The notes below the pieces were generated by a model. It did no database searches, was not told where the DNA came from, and worked only from the letters and a program-made list of their open reading frames with translations. A program made the position numbers and the translations under genes. This document shows, piece after piece, positions 3,030-23,731 of a stretch of 56,890 nucleotides of DNA (its first letter is position 1; every line of letters begins with the position of its first letter). Origin of the DNA: Syntrophomonadaceae bacterium (lineage in GTDB: Bacteria > Bacillota > Dethiobacteria > DTU022); assembly GCA_003554615.1 (NCBI GenBank), contig PWGX01000008.1:1-56890 (forward strand), in the 5' to 3' direction.

Positions 3030-4067
3030 ATGACTGCTGAATTGAACGATAGAAAAGAGCAGATTCTTCGATCCGTAGTTATTAATTATATTAAAACAGC
3101 TGAGCCTGTCGGTTCACGTACAATATCCAGATCCCATCCCGGCGGCCTCAGCTCAGCAACAATCAGGAATGAGATGGCCGACCTGGAGGAAATGGGGTAC
3201 CTGGCTCAGCCTCATACTTCCGCCGGAAGAATTCCATCCCAGCGGGGATATCGTTATTATGTCGACGACTTAATGGATTTGAACGAATTAAGTGAGGATG
3301 TTGAAGAGAAGATCAGCACCTCCCTTAGCGCAGGCAAGATGCGAGAGATCGAACAGATTATTATGAACTCGACCAGGGTATTGTCATCTGCCACCAATCA
3401 GACTTCCTTGATTATGGGCCCGCAGTTCAAGAAAAGCGCTTTTCATCAACTTAGAATACTACCCCTGGATGAAAAAAGGGGACTGGTAGTTTTAATTACC
3501 GATACTGGTTTTATAAAGAACAAGGTCATCGATTTTCAGCATCAGTTAAGCCAGACTGAACTGCAGCAGATTGTTTCCTATTTGAACCAAAAACTGTACG
3601 GGTTAACTATTGACCAGGTTACCACTTCACTAATTAACGAGCTGAAAAGAGATCTGTTCCGGCGCCTGGAAATCCTGGAACAGGCATTTATCCTCCTTGA
3701 AGAAAGCCTCAAGGAAGAAAAGCAGATCCGGGTATTCCTCGGAGGGACAACCAATATCCTGAATCAGCCTGAATTTAAAGATGTAGATAAGATCCGCAGG
3801 ATGCTTAACCTGTTTGAACAGGAACCGCTCCTGTTCAAAATCCTTGAGGACACTTCAAGCGAAGACAATATCGTGGTGCGGATAGGCTCTGAGAATGAAT
3901 TTGAAGACATTAAAGAATGTACCCTGATCACGGGCACCTACCGGATCCATGATAAAACCCTGGGGACTGTAGGAGTTCTCGGGCCGACCAGGATGGATTA
4001 CGGGAAGGTGATCAGCGTTATGCGCCGTCTTGTCGATCAGCTTAACCAGAGTCTCAGCAGTTCCTGA
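3030..4067 (+). CDS. hrcA: heat-inducible transcription repressor
   Basis: EPVGSR, SSATIRNEMADLEEMGYL, PHTSAGRIPS, GVLGPTRMDY; CIRCE upstream. Confidence 0.97.
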   Translation: MTAELNDRKEQILRSVVINYIKTAEPVGSRTISRSHPGGLSSATIRNEMADLEEMGYLAQPHTSAGRIPSQRGYRYYVDDLMDLNELSEDVEEKISTSLSAGKMREIEQIIMNSTRVLSSATNQTSLIMGPQFKKSAFHQLRILPLDEKRGLVVLITDTGFIKNKVIDFQHQLSQTELQQIVSYLNQKLYGLTIDQVTTSLINELKRDLFRRLEILEQAFILLEESLKEEKQIRVFLGGTTNILNQPEFKDVDKIRRMLNLFEQEPLLFKILEDTSSEDNIVVRIGSENEFEDIKECTLITGTYRIHDKTLGTVGVLGPTRMDYGKVISVMRRLVDQLNQSLSSS

Positions 4068-4169
4068 CCGGGTTAAACTACAGGCGGGGGGTACGGCAGT
4101 ACACTGAATTTATTTAGGACTGTGGACTCTTTATTACCATCAATCTTATACGAGCAGGTGAAATTTTTT

Positions 4170-4829
4170 ATGTCCGGGAAAAAACGGAAAGAACAACAAG
4201 CAGAACAATCTGCAGAACAGGAAGAACGACAGCAGGGACAAATGGAACAGGAAACAGTGCTCGAAAGAGAACCTGGCAAGTCCGGAGTGGAACAAGAGCT
4301 GCCGGATCAAAATGATAATGATCTAGCAGCTGAAAAGGACGGGTTAACTGAAGAAGAACCAGGGCAGGAAGAAGAAACGGCAGAAGCGGAATGGATGCAG
4401 GAAAAAGAAGAACTCCTGGACCGGCTGAAGCGAAAGCAGGCCGAAATGGACAATTTACGGCGGATTAGCAAGATGGAACAGGCTGAAGCAAAGGATTACG
4501 CCCTTCACGATTTTTTGAGCAGGCTCCTGCCGGTAGTGGATAACCTGGAACGGGCCCTGGAATCTGCCCGTTCTGATCAAAAAGTCCCCGATACCCATGT
4601 TGACGGACTGGAAATGATCTATAAGCAAATCTTTCAGATCCTGGAGCAGGAAGGGGTTAGTGTCATAGAGGCGGAAGGAAATCCTTTTGATCCGCACTGC
4701 CATCATGCCGTGATGGCAGTGGAAAGTGATGAAACAGAACCAGGAAACGTCGTAGAAGAGCTTCAGCGGGGTTACCGTCACCGGGAAAGGGTCCTTCGGC
4801 CGGCCATGGTTAAAGTTTGCCGTGAATAA
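4170..4829 (+). CDS. grpE: nucleotide exchange factor GrpE
   Basis: LLPVVDNLERAL, FDPHCHHAV, QRGY...VLRPAMVKV; ATG 4170 taken as start. Confidence 0.95.
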   Translation: MSGKKRKEQQAEQSAEQEERQQGQMEQETVLEREPGKSGVEQELPDQNDNDLAAEKDGLTEEEPGQEEETAEAEWMQEKEELLDRLKRKQAEMDNLRRISKMEQAEAKDYALHDFLSRLLPVVDNLERALESARSDQKVPDTHVDGLEMIYKQIFQILEQEGVSVIEAEGNPFDPHCHHAVMAVESDETEPGNVVEELQRGYRHRERVLRPAMVKVCRE

Positions 4830-6976: not shown

Positions 6977-8128
6977 TTGAGTATGGAAAGACGGGATTAT
7001 TATGAAATTTTAGGACTGAACCGCAATGCCAGTGAAGCCGAAGTGAAAAAAGCGTACAGGAGGCTGGCCAAGCAGTATCATCCCGATTTAAACAAGGATG
7101 ATCCTGACGCCGAAAATAAATTTAAAGAGATGAAAGAAGCTTATGATGTCCTGAGCGATCCCCGGAAGAGAGAGCACTATGATCGCTTCGGCCATCAAGC
7201 CGGCGGCCCGGGTGGATTTGAAGGTTTTGGCGGCACCGGTTTTGGCCAGGCTGGTTTCGGCGGCATCGATGAAATATTTGAACAGTTTTTCGGTGGAATG
7301 GGCGGTATGGGTGCACGCCGCAGGCAGCGCGGACCCGAACAGGGGGACCACCTGCGCTATGATCTGGAGATTACCCTGGAAGAAGCTTTTCATGGCGGTG
7401 AAAAAGTAATTACCATACCGCGAACCGAAACCTGCCCTGATTGCGAAGGCAAGAAAACTAAATCCGCCGGCGGTTCCGAGACCTGTCCTTCATGCGGCGG
7501 CAGCGGACAGCAGCAGTATACCCGGAGCACACCTTTCGGCCGTTTTGTCAGCATGCAGGTCTGTGGTAACTGCAGGGGTGAAGGTGTAATTATAAGCGAC
7601 CCCTGTCCCACCTGCAGTGCCCAGGGCCGGATTGTGCAGGAAAGAAAAATTGAAATTAAAATACCACCCGGGGTGGAAGACGGTTCAAGGCTCAGGGTCA
7701 GCGGTGGTGGCGAAGCCGGTGTCCGCGGCGGACCTTCCGGAGATTTATATGTGGTGTTCCGGATCCGTCCCCACAAGGTGTTTCAGAGAAAAGGCAGTGA
7801 TTTGTGGATAGAAGAAACAATAAGCATTAGCCAGGCTGCCCTCGGCGTGGAAAAGGAAGTGCCGACTCTCGAGGGGACGGCTACCCTCAGGATCCCTGAA
7901 GGGACCCAGCACGGTACGACCTTCCGCTTAAAAGGGCAGGGTATGCCTCACCTGCGTGGTTCTGGACGGGGCGACTTGCGCGCAACAGTCAAGGTAAGTG
8001 TTCCCAAACGCCTCACACCTCGTCAGAAGGAGCTATTGGAAGAATTTGCTTATCTTAACGGTGAAGAAGTGGGGGTTGAAAACAAAGGTTTTTTTGACCG
8101 GATGAAAGATGCTTTTGGCGGCGGATAG
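6977..8128 (+). CDS. dnaJ: chaperone DnaJ
   Basis: J-domain HPD, G/F-rich region, four CxxCxxxG-type zinc repeats. Confidence 0.97.
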
Positions 8129-17940: not shown

Positions 17941-18945
17941 TTGGCAGATAGTATTACGAGCAGGACCATAACGCTTGCCAGCGGAGATGAAGCGGTTCAG
18001 CTGCTGGGAAAACAGGATCGTCATTTCAGCCTGATCGAAGATAAGTTTGATGTTCGCCTGATCCCAAAAGGCCATGAATTAGTGATCGAAGGCAATTCTG
18101 AAGATGTGGAAGCGCTTTATGCCATGCTCCAGGAACTGCTTGCCCATATTCGTAAAGGCCATATGCTGAGCGGGCGGGAATTTGAATATGCCCTTAAACT
18201 TACCGCGCAGGGGGATGTTGGCTCGATCCGCTCCTTGTTCAGCGATTTAATCCTGGTGACGCCACGCGGCAAGCAGATCAGGCCGAAAACAATTGGCCAA
18301 AAAAAATACCTGGAAGCAATCCGTTCGCATGATATCGTTTTGTCAATTGGACCGGCCGGGACAGGCAAAACTTATCTGGCCCTGGCCATGGCGGTTGATG
18401 CCCTTAAGAGCAAGCAGGTGCAGCGCTTAATCCTGACCCGTCCCGCAGTGGAGGCGGGTGAGCATCTCGGCTTTTTGCCGGGCGACTTTCAGGAAAAAGT
18501 GGATCCGTACCTGCGGCCTATTTATGATGGGTTGTATGATCTTTTAGGAGTGGATGTTTTCCAAAAATACAGGGAAAAAGGAATTATTGAAATTGCCCCC
18601 CTGGCATACATGCGTGGACGGACCCTGGATGATTCATTTGTCATTCTTGATGAAGGCCAGAATGCCACTTCCGAACAAATGAAAATGCTTTTAACCAGGC
18701 TTGGTTTTGGCTCCAAGGCGGTGGTCACCGGGGACGTAACCCAGGTTGATCTGCCCGGCGGCAGATATTCGGGTTTAGAAGAAGCTTCCCGTATTTTGTC
18801 AGGCATCGAAGGGATTGCCCTTATATATCTCAGTGAAAAAGATGTAGTCCGACACCCCCTGGTTCAAAGCATCATCAAAGCCTACGAAGCATACAAGGGC
18901 TCAAAGGAAAGGGGTAGCAATGAAAAAGAAAACAAGGCTCAGTGA
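17941..18945 (+). CDS. phoH: PhoH family ATPase
   Basis: GPAGTGKT, RPAVEAGEHLGFLPGD, LAYMRGRTL, VVRHPLV. Confidence 0.95.
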   Translation: MADSITSRTITLASGDEAVQLLGKQDRHFSLIEDKFDVRLIPKGHELVIEGNSEDVEALYAMLQELLAHIRKGHMLSGREFEYALKLTAQGDVGSIRSLFSDLILVTPRGKQIRPKTIGQKKYLEAIRSHDIVLSIGPAGTGKTYLALAMAVDALKSKQVQRLILTRPAVEAGEHLGFLPGDFQEKVDPYLRPIYDGLYDLLGVDVFQKYREKGIIEIAPLAYMRGRTLDDSFVILDEGQNATSEQMKMLLTRLGFGSKAVVTGDVTQVDLPGGRYSGLEEASRILSGIEGIALIYLSEKDVVRHPLVQSIIKAYEAYKGSKERGSNEKENKAQ

Positions 18946-21025
18946 TATTTTTGACCGGTCTGTCTCATTTAAAGACAACGTCCGGTTGCAAAAACTTGTC
19001 CTGGTTGCTGTCCTCTTTTTTACTGTCTACCTGATCCTGGTTGTAGTCAGCATGCCGGCACGCCTGGATATATCGGTTGGCAGGCCCAGCCCCAGGACTA
19101 TTTATGCTCCCCGCGATGCTGAGGATTCATATGCTACTGAGCAGTTGCGCGAGGAGGCAGCCGAAAACGTGCCCGAAGTTTATGACTATGATCCCCTGGC
19201 CCTGGAAGGAGCTCTGGCGGAGATAGATCGATTTTTTGATCAAGTCGTGGAGATTAACGACATGAACGATGAACTGGAAACTGCAGACAAGGTGGAGATG
19301 ATCCAGGACCTCCTGCCCGAGGAAGTGGCGGCCGATACAGCGGCATCCCTGCTCACCAGCGAGGGCAACCTGAGGGATCTGCAGGAACGGTTGAATAATT
19401 CAGTCAGGGAAGTATTTGAAAATGGCATCAAAGAAAACGAAGTTGAGGCAGTCAGAAGAAGGCTTAGCCAGGAAATAGCTCTTTACCCTTCCAGTCCCGG
19501 TTTGAAGAGGGTTGCTGAAATCCTGGTGAACCCCCTGGTTGAGGTCAACCAATTTTATAATGAAGAAGCGACGGAAGAGGCAAGAGAACGAGCCCGTGAA
19601 GAAGTAGAACCGGTTATTATCATGCGCAACACCCTTATTGTCAGCGAAGGCGAGCCGGTTACCGAGCACCAGTATTCCCAGCTGGAAGATCTGGGTCTGA
19701 TCAGGGGGCATAGGGCTGATTACCCCGCCTATATCGGTCTATTTCTGCTTCTTGTGATCGTATTTGTGCTGGTGGGCATTTATATGTCCATTTTTGCCAA
19801 GGAAGTGTTTGTCAGCCCCAGGCTCCTCATGTTGATGGGGATAGTATTTTTGATCACCCTTCTGTTCTGCGTAGCGGCCAACTATTTTTCCGGATACCTG
19901 ATCCCGGTGGCTATCGGGGTGATCCTGATTACAGTAATGTTTGGTTACAAACTGGCCCTGATTATTAACCTGATCCTTGTCCTGACAGTGGGTCTGATTA
20001 CCGGGGGCAACTTTTCATATATGACGGTTGCCCTGACCGGGGGCCTTGTTTCAATATATGCCGTTACCAGGCTGAGCCAGACAAGCGACCTGGCCCGGGC
20101 CGGGTTCTTTGTAGCTGTGACCAATGCCTTTGTTATCATATCCACCTACCTTTTCTTCGGCAATGTCAGCCTGGAATATGACTCTTTGATTAACTTCAGT
20201 TACAGCATGATGGCCGGGATTGGAAGCGGCATATTCTCAGCTGTTGTCGCTATTGGTTTACTGCCGTACCTGGAAAGTTTCTTCGGGGTTACCACGGCCA
20301 TTACTTTGCTGGAATTATCAAACCCCAACCATCCGCTCTTGAAAGAAATGCTTTTAAAAGCACCGGGTACCTATTATCACAGCATGATGGTGTCCAACCT
20401 GGCCGAATCGGCTGCGGAAACAGTTAATGCCGATGCCCTGCTGACCAGGGTGGGTGCCTATTATCATGATATCGGCAAACTTAAAAGACCCTATTTTTTC
20501 TCGGAAAACCAGTTATCGGGCGATAACCCCCATACAAGGCTTACGCCAAATTTGAGTTCCCTGGTGATCAGTTCCCATCCCAAGGACGGGTTGGAGATTG
20601 GCAGGAAACACCGTCTGCCGGAGCCGATTCTCGAGATCGTGGCCCAGCATCATGGCAGCAGCATGGTTTCGTTCTTTTATCAGAAGGCCCTGGAAAGCGG
20701 CACCCAGGAAAAAGTATCTATGGACAAATTCCGCTATGAAGGGCCGAAACCGCAATCCAAGGAAGCGGCAATTGTTATGCTGGCCGACGCCGTCGAAGCG
20801 GGAGTCCGCTCCCTTAATAAGCCTTCCAGCAGCAGGGTGGAAACGATGGTTCGGCGGATGATCAAGGATAAACTTGAAGACGGCCAGCTGGATCAATCCG
20901 ATTTGACCCTGAAAGAACTGGATCAGATCGCAGAATCTTTTATCTATATTATGTCGGGGATTTATCATCAGCGGATAGAGTACCCGGAAAAAACCCTCAA
21001 AGCGGAACTGGAAAGCGGAACCTAA
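18920..21025 (+). CDS. pgpH: 7TM-HD phosphohydrolase (PgpH-like c-di-AMP phosphodiesterase)
   Basis: Extracellular domain, 7TM block, APGTYYHS, YYHDIGK, QHHG, MLADAVEA; conserved phoH-pgpH-ybeY order. Confidence 0.85.
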   Translation: MKKKTRLSDIFDRSVSFKDNVRLQKLVLVAVLFFTVYLILVVVSMPARLDISVGRPSPRTIYAPRDAEDSYATEQLREEAAENVPEVYDYDPLALEGALAEIDRFFDQVVEINDMNDELETADKVEMIQDLLPEEVAADTAASLLTSEGNLRDLQERLNNSVREVFENGIKENEVEAVRRRLSQEIALYPSSPGLKRVAEILVNPLVEVNQFYNEEATEEARERAREEVEPVIIMRNTLIVSEGEPVTEHQYSQLEDLGLIRGHRADYPAYIGLFLLLVIVFVLVGIYMSIFAKEVFVSPRLLMLMGIVFLITLLFCVAANYFSGYLIPVAIGVILITVMFGYKLALIINLILVLTVGLITGGNFSYMTVALTGGLVSIYAVTRLSQTSDLARAGFFVAVTNAFVIISTYLFFGNVSLEYDSLINFSYSMMAGIGSGIFSAVVAIGLLPYLESFFGVTTAITLLELSNPNHPLLKEMLLKAPGTYYHSMMVSNLAESAAETVNADALLTRVGAYYHDIGKLKRPYFFSENQLSGDNPHTRLTPNLSSLVISSHPKDGLEIGRKHRLPEPILEIVAQHHGSSMVSFFYQKALESGTQEKVSMDKFRYEGPKPQSKEAAIVMLADAVEAGVRSLNKPSSSRVETMVRRMIKDKLEDGQLDQSDLTLKELDQIAESFIYIMSGIYHQRIEYPEKTLKAELESGT

Positions 21026-21043: not shown

Positions 21044-21502
21044 ATGGTAGTGGGCTTATATATTAACTGTCTGAACGAGGATTACAGGTTATCCAAACTC
21101 TTGACTGATGCGTTAACAGCAAACGTTGAGCGAATCTTGGAAGAATATAATCTTTCCGGCGGCGAGGTTGGTTTGATCCTGGTTGATGATCGGTATATAA
21201 GGTCGCTTAATAAACAGTACCGGGATAAAGATGCCCCCACTGATGTACTCTCATTCTCTTTTCTTGAACCTGACAGCGCAGACAGTGCCGGTGATAAGGA
21301 ATTTGCCGTGGGCGATATTTATGTCTCGGTGGACAGGGCCCGCGGGCAGGCACTAGATGCCGGGCACAGCCTGGAAAGAGAAATTATCCTTCTTGCCGTT
21401 CATGGCCTGCTTCATCTTCTTGGATACGATCACGAAGAGGAAGAAGAAAAGCAGCTGATGCAAAATAAAGAGCGAGAAATAATCGAACGATTTGACTTTT
21501 AG
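21044..21502 (+). CDS. ybeY: rRNA maturation endoribonuclease YbeY
   Basis: LNKQYR..D.PTDVLSF, HGLLHLLGYDH. Confidence 0.95.
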   Translation: MVVGLYINCLNEDYRLSKLLTDALTANVERILEEYNLSGGEVGLILVDDRYIRSLNKQYRDKDAPTDVLSFSFLEPDSADSAGDKEFAVGDIYVSVDRARGQALDAGHSLEREIILLAVHGLLHLLGYDHEEEEEKQLMQNKEREIIERFDF

Positions 21503-21520: not shown

Positions 21521-21898
21521 ATGCAAAAGGTACTTTTCAGCCTTAAGAATGCCTGTATAGGCCTGAGGCACTGCTTTTGTACCCAGCGCAATATGGTTGT
21601 ACATGCAGTTATCGGCGCCGTTGTGCTTTTAACGGCATTTTACCTGCATATACCGCTTACCGGAATGCTTTTTTTGCTCACAGCAATTATGGCTGTTATG
21701 GTAACAGAAGTGCTTAATACCGCCCTTGAACAGGTGATTGACCTGTTTACTACAGAGCGCAATTACTTTGCCCAAAAAGCAAAAGATCTAGCCGCCGGGG
21801 CCGTCCTGCTCACCTCTTTGTTTGCTGTCGTGGTGGGCCTGTGTATCCTTGGACCGCCCCTGCTGGAGCTGTTCAGGGACTTTTTGCTGCTTTATTAG
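21521..21898 (+). CDS. dgkA: diacylglycerol/undecaprenol kinase
   Basis: EVLNTALEQVID, AKDLAAGAV, three TM segments. Confidence 0.9.
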   Translation: MQKVLFSLKNACIGLRHCFCTQRNMVVHAVIGAVVLLTAFYLHIPLTGMLFLLTAIMAVMVTEVLNTALEQVIDLFTTERNYFAQKAKDLAAGAVLLTSLFAVVVGLCILGPPLLELFRDFLLLY

Positions 21899-21909
21899 GA
21901 GGTGGAATT

Positions 21910-22737
21910 ATGCTAAATGAAAGCCTCCTGGCAACGGCGCGGGCGGCCAGGATCAGGGCTTATGCCCCTTATTCCGGATTTCCGGTCGGCGCCGCCCTGC
22001 TTACTGAAGAAGGCGCGGTTATAACCGGGGCAAATGTTGAAAATTCTTCTTCCGGCATGACTGTTTGCGCTGAAAGGGCAGCTGTCATGGCGGCAGTCCA
22101 TGCCGGTTACCGTTCCTTTAAAAAAATTGCCGTTGTGGCCGATTGTTCGCCGCCTCCTTCTCCCTGTGGGGCCTGCAGGCAGGTTTTATGGGAATTGGCC
22201 GGCCCTGTTGAAGTAATTATGGGGAACCTGGAGAATGAAATATTGACGGAATCGCTGCAGGATTTATACCCCAACCCCTTTGGTTGTGGGAAGTGGATTG
22301 ATAATCCTGTGGATGAGAGTTTGTTTAATTCTGTGGAAGGCTGGCGGATACCGGTATCTTTTCATCCAATCGGTTACGTGGCCAATGATTTTAATGATTC
22401 CGATCATATTCCCGGCAATTACAAAGAGCTGCTGTCCAGGGTTGTCATCGCCCCGGAATTTGAAGAAGGCCTTTACCGGATCGAGGAAGAAGAGAAAATA
22501 AATATCATATCTTACCTGCACCGGGCCCGGGGATATACATTGAAAGGCAGGCGGCCGGGCCGGGGAAACGAAGTTTACGGCGTTTTTGTCTGCCGGGCTC
22601 CTTTAAGGCCCAATTCCATTGCCCAGACCACGGTAGACCTGGTTGACAGGGACAATAATGTTCTGACAGTGAGAGGTGCGGATCTGGCCAACGGGACGCC
22701 GATCCTTGATTTGAAGACGATCATGCCGGGCAATTAA
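21910..22737 (+). CDS. cdd: cytidine deaminase fused to a C-terminal TsaA/TrmO-like SAM-binding domain
   Basis: N-domain AYAPYS.FPVGAA, NVEN, CAER, PCGACRQ; C-domain (from ~22360) HPIGYV, EEGL..IE, GVF..RAP.RPNSI, DLANGTPILDLK; ATG 21910 after AGGAGG. Confidence 0.88.
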   Translation: MLNESLLATARAARIRAYAPYSGFPVGAALLTEEGAVITGANVENSSSGMTVCAERAAVMAAVHAGYRSFKKIAVVADCSPPPSPCGACRQVLWELAGPVEVIMGNLENEILTESLQDLYPNPFGCGKWIDNPVDESLFNSVEGWRIPVSFHPIGYVANDFNDSDHIPGNYKELLSRVVIAPEFEEGLYRIEEEEKINIISYLHRARGYTLKGRRPGRGNEVYGVFVCRAPLRPNSIAQTTVDLVDRDNNVLTVRGADLANGTPILDLKTIMPGN

Positions 22738-22756
22738 ACGGCGGCCTTCACTGCTC

Positions 22757-22784
22757 TTGCCGATCATCATTGCAGTGGTATAAT
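22757..22784 (+). promoter_or_regulatory. putative sigmaA promoter for era
   Basis: TTGCCG-N16-TATAAT with extended -10 TG. Confidence 0.5.
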
Positions 22785-22843
22785 TATTTCGCGATACCCT
22801 GATCCACGATAGCAGCAGAGAGAAGAAAAGAAGGGTTATAACT

Positions 22844-23731
22844 ATGCACCGTTCGGGTTTTGTGGCCTTGATTGGCCGGCCTAATGTCGGAAAATCGACC
22901 TTGCTCAATGCCCTGGTCAAAGAGAAAGTGGCTATTATATCTGAACGCCCCCAGACCACGAGGAATCAAATCAGGGCGGTATTGACCAGGCCTGAAGATC
23001 AACTGATCTTTATAGATACGCCCGGCCTGCACAAACCGAAGCATAAGCTTGGCTCGGCGATGGTCCAAAAAGCTCGCAATACAATCCACGAGGTGGATCT
23101 GATTTACTTTATTGTTGAAGCCCATTATCCACCGGGCGGGGGAGACCATTACATAGCTGAGATCCTGCAAAATTCTGTCACCCCTGTATTTTTAATCATG
23201 AACAAAACTGACCTTGCAGCGCCGGAAAAGCTCGATACCCACAGGGATCTATATCAGAGGCTGTGTCCTTTCACAGAGCATTTTTCCGTTTCTGCCCTTC
23301 AAGGTCATAATTTGGCGTATTTGGTGGAAACCACCGCTTCGTATTTTCCGGAAGGGCCGCAATACTATCCTCCGGATATGGTTACCGATCAACCGGAACG
23401 CTTTATTGCCGCGGAAATTATCCGGGAAAAGCTTATTACCCTGACCAGGCAGGAAATCCCCTTTTCCGTAGCAGTGGTCATCGAAGAAATGAAGCCCAGG
23501 GAAGATGGCGAATTACTTGACATTTGGGCGGAAATATACGTGGAAAGGAAATCCCAGGTAGGAATAATTGTTGGTAAAGGCGGGGCCATGCTAAAGGAGG
23601 CCGGAACCAGGGCCAGGCAGGAACTGGAGGCCCTGTTCGGACAGCATATTTTTCTTGACCTGAGGGTTAAAGTGAAGCGAGAATGGCGCAATCGCGATGA
23701 GGAATTGCGCCGCCTGGGTTACAGCGACTAA
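22844..23731 (+). CDS. era: GTPase Era
   Basis: GRPNVGKSTL, QTTRN, DTPG, NKTD, KH-domain GKGG. Confidence 0.97.
   Translation: MHRSGFVALIGRPNVGKSTLLNALVKEKVAIISERPQTTRNQIRAVLTRPEDQLIFIDTPGLHKPKHKLGSAMVQKARNTIHEVDLIYFIVEAHYPPGGGDHYIAEILQNSVTPVFLIMNKTDLAAPEKLDTHRDLYQRLCPFTEHFSVSALQGHNLAYLVETTASYFPEGPQYYPPDMVTDQPERFIAAEIIREKLITLTRQEIPFSVAVVIEEMKPREDGELLDIWAEIYVERKSQVGIIVGKGGAMLKEAGTRARQELEALFGQHIFLDLRVKVKREWRNRDEELRRLGYSD

Follow-up and report, generated by a model that had tools for sequence, protein, structure and literature searches.

Introduction

What would a cytidine deaminase gain from a second, S-adenosylmethionine (SAM)-binding domain at its C-terminus? The question is raised by a single gene in a stretch of 56,890 nt (hereafter the window) from contig PWGX01000008.1 of the Syntrophomonadaceae bacterium assembly GCA_003554615.1. 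In this gene the reading frame of cdd, encoding cytidine deaminase (CDA), runs on through a short linker into a beta-barrel of the YaeB/TrmO_N (UPF0066) family. Members of 23 genera share the fusion, and deaminase and barrel have been joined on more than one occasion. Many archaea and some bacteria have short YaeB/TrmO_N proteins, which bind SAM in a fold unlike that of other methyltransferases; a member joined to a well-understood enzyme gives experiments direct access to this orphan SAM-binding family. It also exposes an annotation gap, the barrel being ignored where sources say only "cytidine deaminase." The initial annotation of the locus knew of no described fusion of this kind, and our survey agrees: cytidine deaminase is not mentioned together with TrmO or YaeB in the literature searched, where matches to "TsaA" were unrelated immunology and base-editing papers. 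What is new is the fusion, undescribed in that literature; the proteins themselves are already in public databases.

A Genuine and Conserved Fusion

The fused open reading frame (ORF) was translated and scanned with Pfam and NCBIfam profiles, and divides as follows.

21910..22737, + strand: fused ORF (P0001), 275 aa plus stop, with no internal stop; architecture shared by 120/120 listed homologues
21910..22284, + strand: cytidine deaminase domain of the homotetrameric type, residues 1-125, with Zn ligands C53, C86 and C89 and catalytic E55 (TIGR01354, Foldseek, conservation)
22285..22353, + strand: poorly conserved linker, residues 126-148, about 23 residues (residue frequency, dN, pLDDT)
22342..22347, + strand: W145-R146, a conserved pair closing the linker (conservation in 120 homologues)
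22354..22725, + strand: TrmO_N (YaeB/UPF0066) SAM-binding beta-barrel, residues 149-272, of the short type without TrmO_C (PF01980, 2nv4 alignment, Foldseek, conservation)

Pfam places dCMP_cyt_deam_1 (PF00383) at residues 4-103 (E 3.6e-16) and TrmO_N (PF01980) at residues 171-272 (E 5.6e-20). The in-frame union of cdd with a TsaA-like domain across a short linker, as initially annotated, is borne out, and every motif quoted for it is present in the 275-aa translation: CAER, PCGACRQ, ENSSSG, HPIGYV, GVFVCRAPLRPNSI and DLANGTPILDLKTI.

The fusion is confirmed as genuine, being neither an assembly artefact nor a chance event. Contigs from two independent metagenome runs, neither flagged as a possible source of the assembly, cross the linker without a gap, one (X8 record 6) spanning 21939-22885 with one substitution and the other (X9 record 13) spanning 22060-22614 with none. 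A stop or frameshift in the linker, which had been proposed as the thing to look for in reads and relatives, was seen neither in these contigs nor in the 20 two-domain relatives that follow. In the family of the source genome (hereafter f1), 20 of the 24 other genomes carry both domains in one stop-free frame at 57-95% identity, with the copy in one of the 20 (G008) cut by a contig end. The remaining four comprise one contig-edge fragment, one genome with a stand-alone barrel only, and two without a match. Among the best homologues listed from a large protein collection, all 120 (52-95% identity, 271-303 aa) contain PF00383 together with PF01980; where named, they are called "cytidine deaminase," bar one garbled metaclust entry. 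Their taxon labels include Bacillota and Dethiobacteria metagenome-assembled genomes, and the run labels name soda-lake, salt-lake and sediment metagenomes. These 120 fused proteins form the alignment (A1) from which the conservation counts below are taken.

Outside f1, the two genes are found apart. In 16 genomes from four other families of the same class (the sister families), cdd is a separate open frame of 127-173 aa in 16/16, and TrmO_N matches, present in 10 of the 16, are on contigs other than that of cdd or about 200 kb away from it. A class-wide barrel search of 149 genomes, with the fused type defined by an identity of at least 51% and an E of at most 2.9e-36, recovered it in 65 of the 72 other f1 genomes and in none of the 76 class genomes outside f1. 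Any barrel match at all occurred in 22 of those 76, and the top matches had 40% identity (E 9.0e-16) or an E of 9.3e-20 (37% identity). When f1 genomes were searched with the Pfam model, TrmO_N was found in 58/61 (23 genera), mostly as a single copy within an open frame of 272-340 aa, and at least two PF01980 matches were found in nine of the 61. Eight copies from f1 genomes were read, seven of them small stand-alone barrels (98-179 aa) and the eighth, in G059, a barrel protein of 268 aa with an unassigned C-domain. Stand-alone copies of this kind indicate that the barrel is separable from the deaminase.

The fused gene can also be lost altogether. In G012 (same genus, 100% complete), ybeY and dgkA are followed, after 205 nt, by era, and the fused gene is cleanly missing (L015, G012:C49, 900-1500). 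No homotetrameric CDA (T-CDA) match was found in this genome, in which a canonical 143-aa stand-alone TrmO_N located elsewhere (L107) is the sole barrel retained.

Two side observations concern the barrel. At window position 22615, within its coding region, both independent metagenome runs (X8, X9) read T>C, probably as strain variation. Fused-type barrels also appear as short ORFs in P0390 (129 aa) and in P0126 and P0391 (91-110 aa); these are possible split forms, in which fission, frameshift and gene-call truncation are not told apart.

Features of the Two Halves

By every sequence and fold feature tested, the N-terminal half belongs to the homotetrameric CDA family. The NCBIfam model cyt_deam_tetra (TIGR01354) matches residues 5-125 at 123.7 bits against a cut-off of 113.65, and again lies above the cut-off, at 125.7 bits, in the genome search. 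Foldseek aligns this half to Bacillus subtilis CDA (1jtk_A) with E 1.6e-13, TMt 0.89 and a root-mean-square deviation of 2.1 over 125 columns. The CAER and PCGACRQ motifs had been described as intact and are so throughout the family, with zinc and catalytic residues invariant in 120/120; the fully invariant set comprises N42, E44, C53, A54, E55, C86, C89 and Q91. F24 and F124 are each kept in 117/120, and N45 and P85 are invariant or nearly so. We take F24, N42, E44 and the C-terminal Phe to be nucleoside-pocket residues, by analogy with their roles in B. subtilis CDA.

Two of the motif deviations first noted in the fusion are not special. Position 48, a Ser in the window protein, is Y in 67, F in 25, S in 18, L in 4, P in 3 and H in 3 of the 120, and the surrounding motif (ENSSSG) is equally variable in 16 stand-alone sister cdds; Y48-to-S was rejected as a sign of changed deaminase function because the position varies in both groups. 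In the barrel, ACR(S/A)P is also found in stand-alone relatives, and "VCRAP" was likewise rejected as unusual since ACRSP occurs there. A third deviation, KT(V/I) in place of KPY, does hold up as specific to the fusion family (T in 117/120).

The C-terminal half has the TrmO_N fold, scoring 72.1 bits against PF01980 (cut-off 26.8). The closest solved structure by sequence is AF0241 (2nv4; E 1.8e-15), and Foldseek matches the SAM-bound 2nv4 with TMt 0.78. As described by Kimura et al. (2014; PMC4132733), AF0241 holds SAM via Q22, R82, D111 and K122, the last contributed by the partner chain, and the E. coli TrmO equivalents are Q25, R92, D125 and K136. In a HMMER alignment to 2nv4, R82, D111 and K122 of AF0241 fall on R229, D258 and K269 of the window protein, kept in 118/120, 120/120 and 120/120, respectively. 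R233-P234-N235 and D267 are invariant in A1; the "Gly7, Pro74, Asn75, Asp107" of the same paper were mapped to G155, P234, N235 and D267 by motif only.

Kimura et al. further state that E. coli TrmO requires a C-terminal DPRxxY domain, hypothesised to bind tRNA, to form N6-methyl-N6-threonylcarbamoyladenosine (m6t6A), that archaeal homologues are without that domain, and that m6t6A was never detected among the archaeal tRNAs analysed (PMC4132733). In the window protein, TrmO_C (PF18389) has no match at E up to 1, no further Pfam match was found, and the sequence contains no DPR; with the protein ending three residues past the barrel, a TrmO_C or DPRxxY domain is absent. As this domain is missing and the score for the TrmO equivalog falls below its cut-off (see below), the C-terminal half is, on its sequence, a TrmO_N fold that is not TrmO proper and that belongs with the orphan short YaeB proteins. 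For the same two reasons, formation of m6t6A, for which an assay had first been suggested, cannot be assumed.

Conservation and codon comparisons indicate that the deaminase and the barrel are both under purifying selection. In A1, the top residue has a mean frequency of 0.75 in the deaminase domain and 0.74 in the barrel, and of 0.45 in the linker. When the fused gene was compared codon by codon with 11 relatives, the ratio of nonsynonymous to synonymous substitution rates (dN/dS) was 0.055-0.49 in the deaminase domain, where the highest value belongs to the closest pair, with few changes. In the barrel it was 0.055-0.11 (six of the 11 pairs, those with unsaturated, finite dS), as low as in the deaminase domain or lower. 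The linker has a dN 3-4x that of either domain, and carries at its end W145 (120/120) and R146 (119/120), a pair absent from P0182, P0179, P0392 and P0395, the stand-alone relatives and FmdE-fused protein read.

An AlphaFold2 monomer built with A1 has a mean predicted local distance difference test (pLDDT) score of 86.4, with the linker at 72-78, and a predicted template modelling (pTM) score of 0.54. Such a pTM, despite a mean pLDDT of about 86, means that no fixed packing of the two domains is predicted. A complex prediction from CDA 1-132 and barrel 143-275 (A1) reached a score of 0.15, where the mark is 0.32, which speaks neither for nor against binding.

The Locus and the Origin of Each Half

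The fused gene lies in a run of genes on the same strand.

18920-21025, + strand: HDIG membrane protein gene
21044..21502, + strand: ybeY, upstream (TIGR00043, 147.5 bits)
21521..21898, + strand: dgkA, directly 5' of the fused gene (PF01219, DAGK_prokar, 101.8 bits)
21897..21902, + strand: Shine-Dalgarno AGGAGG, 7 nt 5' of the ATG and overlapping the dgkA stop codon (read from sequence)
22844..23731, + strand: era, directly 3' of the fused gene (NF000908, 371.3 bits)
further neighbours, + strand: recO, a flavodoxin-like gene and glyQ (profile matches)

Profile matches to dgkA and era on either side establish the dgkA-cdd-era slot named in the initial annotation. Across 12 related loci, era directly adjoins the fusion in 11, the twelfth being cut by a contig end, and dgkA or ybeY stands on the other side in 10. 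The stand-alone cdd of the sister families occupies the same place: it adjoins era at 15 of 16 loci (the other locus stops short of era), and 10 of the 16 also have dgkA or ybeY. Judged by this gene order, the deaminase half is the resident, vertically inherited cdd of the ybeY-dgkA-cdd-era slot.

Three observations on the surroundings stand apart from this. Two loci of the same genus, L006 (G001) and L007 (G011), showed no dgkA in the interval from ybeY to the fused gene. A promoter-like site lies at 22757-22784 (+), within the 106 nt that separate the fusion gene from era (TTGCCG, 16 nt, TATAAT, with TG before the -10); such sites are no commoner in the region than in shuffles (9 vs 6.3 +/- 2.5). 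The source assembly is 71% complete and has 21 tRNA genes, with UGU as the sole tRNA-Thr; the tRNA-Thr(GGU) on which TrmO forms m6t6A37 is not among them.

The barrel half, on the phylogeny, has a source other than the TrmO_N genes of its own class. Those genes encode proteins of three kinds, namely 140-148 aa with canonical motifs (APRQ, KPY), about 270 aa with an unassigned C-domain, and about 179 aa, and a maximum-likelihood tree places all three apart from the fused barrels. The fused barrels form one clade (support 100/99), sister (99/97) to P0179, an FmdE-TrmO_N protein, together with P0182, a 139-aa stand-alone protein. The nearest relatives among the matches listed were P0179, P0182, P0392 and P0395, a "GLYRIE" subgroup at 44-51% identity. 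P0179 (365 aa) is the closest of the matches listed, at 51%; among the stand-alone relatives that carry a taxon label, P0395 (Methanosarcina, 44%) comes nearest. Of such architectures, the literature searched touches on FmdE-UPF0066 alone, in passing (PMC2954224). The simplest account of these sequences is one barrel acquisition and one fusion at the base of f1, because the fused clade is so well supported (100/99) and the type is confined to f1 (65/72 vs 0/76).

A side observation concerns the proteins of about 270 aa, found in sister families and in G059 (L102, L104, L108-L111 and L115). They share a conserved C-domain of about 130 aa with the motif ...ARLANPPRFTF..., which no Pfam model matched at E up to 0.01; PF18389 (TrmO_C) did not match either.

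Recurrent Joining of Deaminase and Barrel

CDA and TrmO_N are joined outside the f1 type as well: an exhaustive search of representative proteins (12,885 matches, 150 listed), combined with Pfam scans, brought up two further forms. P0123 and P0271 (283-289 aa) have the reverse order, TrmO_N-CDA, and P0271 is labelled as a Thermoproteota archaeon. P0272 (315 aa) is CDA-TrmO_N with canonical barrel motifs and 41% identity to the window protein. A search for the reverse fusion in named genomes with P0123 as query gave ordinary cdd, with no full-length match among the best 80 loci. On the metagenome contig L119, a reverse fusion lies at 6995-7864 beside an M24 peptidase; a cytosine/purine/uracil permease gene (PF02133) is found on the same strand at 3329-4654, 2.3 kb upstream. 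Approximately unbiased (AU) tests on the barrel tree, with groups chosen after the tree was seen, rejected a single clade for all CDA-linked barrels (p = 0.0007) and a single clade of f1 and P0272 (p = 0.008), and did not reject P0272 with P0123 and P0271 (p = 0.27). The rejections imply at least two independent fusions across the three architectures.

The cdd gene was also seen with other partners, in YbeY-CDA, DgkA-CDA, ABM-CDA, CDA-CoA-transferase III and nucleoside-transporter-CDA proteins (P0189, P0204, P0255, P0164, P0129, P0158, P0183 and P0338, including a PF01996 form). The protein with PF01996 and PF00383 bears the JGI name F420-0:glutamate ligase/cytidine deaminase. The YbeY-CDA and DgkA-CDA fusions mirror the gene order of the window.

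Proposed Function and Its Alternatives

We consider it about an even chance that the fusion is a bifunctional protein, in which a salvage deaminase and a SAM-dependent methyltransferase work largely independently, the target of the latter not being established. The N-terminal half would be an ordinary zinc-dependent, homotetrameric cytidine/deoxycytidine deaminase acting in cytidine salvage or catabolism. The fusion is the sole T-CDA match in four of the five f1 genomes searched, and all five have a pyrimidine-nucleoside phosphorylase above the cut-off, to which the deaminase would supply uridine; no uridine kinase above its cut-off was found in these five. The C-terminal half would be a short, archaeal-type YaeB/TrmO_N class VIII barrel, presumably gained in a single event at the root of one Bacillota family, where it was attached to cdd at the 3' end by way of a flexible linker. 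It probably retains SAM binding and most likely methylates RNA or another substrate, which is not established as N6-threonylcarbamoyladenosine at tRNA position 37 (t6A37). The deaminase tetramer may pair the barrels, so that K269 would reach into the partner chain and complete its SAM site, like K122 of AF0241, and the two activities would act on different substrates.

Several results weigh against this bifunctional reading. The tRNA_TsaA model (TIGR00104) matches residues 149-271 at only 72.5 bits, below its cut-off of 93.25. The Q22 of AF0241, which contacts the SAM amino group, falls in a gap or on N170 of the window protein and is not kept, position 170 being N in 88/120 and otherwise R, H, D, G or Q. 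The early view of the second domain as a SAM-binding type is upheld for most of the contacts, this Gln being usually an Asn here. The barrel loop 212-232, which carries R229, is modelled at pLDDT below 50. RNA coverage, from one run, is confined to 22826-23000, the start of era. Finally, that the two domains have been fused twice or more, and once in reverse, is not predicted by mere co-expression and favours a functional link.

That last point speaks for another account, which we regard as a tentative possibility and on balance unlikely, namely that the domains are coupled at the level of the nucleoside: the barrel would methylate the deaminase substrate, its product or a modified cytidine or uridine, or would act as a sensor of SAM and S-adenosylhomocysteine (SAH) that gates deamination. 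The three CDA/TrmO_N architectures (the f1 family; P0272; P0123 with P0271) hint at such a link, as do the fusion-specific W145-R146 kept within an otherwise variable linker and the permease gene 2.3 kb from the reverse fusion on L119. The C-terminus of a T-CDA lies near the active site of the neighbouring subunit, which would place a C-terminal barrel close by. However, cdd joins many unrelated partners (YbeY, DgkA, ABM, CoA-transferase, nucleoside transporter, PF01996), sister-family genomes in which both were found have TrmO_N and cdd on separate contigs or some 200 kb from each other, the groups of the AU tests were named post hoc, and the model predicts no packing of domain on domain (pTM 0.54). 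A broader extrapolation from the same recurrence, that short YaeB-type barrels as a family work on pyrimidine nucleosides, methylating the substrate or product or switching deamination through SAM/SAH, is in our view unlikely. If true, it would give a first functional handle on YaeB proteins of archaea, the substrate of which has been an open question since 2014.

A simpler protein can also be imagined, in which the barrel is non-catalytic and serves only in oligomerisation, stability or ligand binding, the whole being just a cytidine deaminase, as its public names have it. The variable Q22 equivalent, the change of KPY to KT(V/I) and the missed TrmO equivalog cut-off would all fit, and the clean loss of the whole gene from G012 implies that it is dispensable. 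We nonetheless find this quite improbable, since a mere scaffold would not need the three SAM contacts, the RPN motif and D267, which are at least 98% conserved, and the dN/dS of the barrel is 0.055-0.11. Least probable of all, and by our estimate very improbable indeed, is an editor of C to U in tRNA or other RNA, with the barrel giving targeting or a linked methylation after the models of TrcP and Trypanosoma brucei ADAT2/3-TRM140. PMC9553926 and PMC5733570 do offer precedents, with deaminases that are joined to a second RNA-modifying activity or depend on one, and the gene sits in a ybeY-era RNA-maturation cluster. Yet the deaminase qualifies as a full equivalog of the tetrameric CDA acting on free nucleosides, its pocket residues being invariant or nearly so, and enzymes of that class hold the nucleoside enclosed between their subunits. 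Its gene stands in the ancestral cdd slot, and no other cdd was found in the genomes searched. The barrel for its part is without the domain hypothesised to bind tRNA (PMC4132733), and the Pfam scan gave no known RNA-binding domain. The CDAT8- or TrcP-like tRNA editor first entertained for this gene is weakened, because a full equivalog that is also the only cdd found argues against it. The initial annotation as a whole is partly supported.

Comparison With Known Systems

The deaminase half resembles B. subtilis Cdd (TIGR01354, 1jtk), with which it shares 46-47% identity, the CAE and PCGxCRQ motifs and the dgkA-era slot. It differs in being extended at the C-terminus by a SAM-binding barrel of 124 aa, reached through a linker of about 23 aa, and in its variable position 48, although that position varies in stand-alone sister cdds too. 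The barrel compares best with AF0241, the archaeal short YaeB of 2nv4: both have a single TrmO_N without the DPRxxY domain, and both share the R, D and K contacts to SAM. The window barrel, however, is fused to a deaminase, the Gln of its PRQ motif is mostly Asn, and KPY has become KT(V/I). With E. coli TrmO (YaeB) it has in common the N-terminal beta-barrel fold and residues matching the R92, D125 and K136 named by Kimura et al., whereas the fusion is without the DPRxxY C-domain and falls below the TIGR00104 cut-off. TrcP of Vibrio cholerae, CDAT8 of Methanopyrus and T. brucei ADAT2/3-TRM140 likewise tie a deaminase to a nucleic-acid-modifying or RNA-binding module. TrcP, CDAT8 and ADAT2/3 act on tRNA, whereas the fusion is a free-nucleoside CDA equivalog whose partner has no demonstrated RNA-binding part; on this comparison, the three systems are analogies only.

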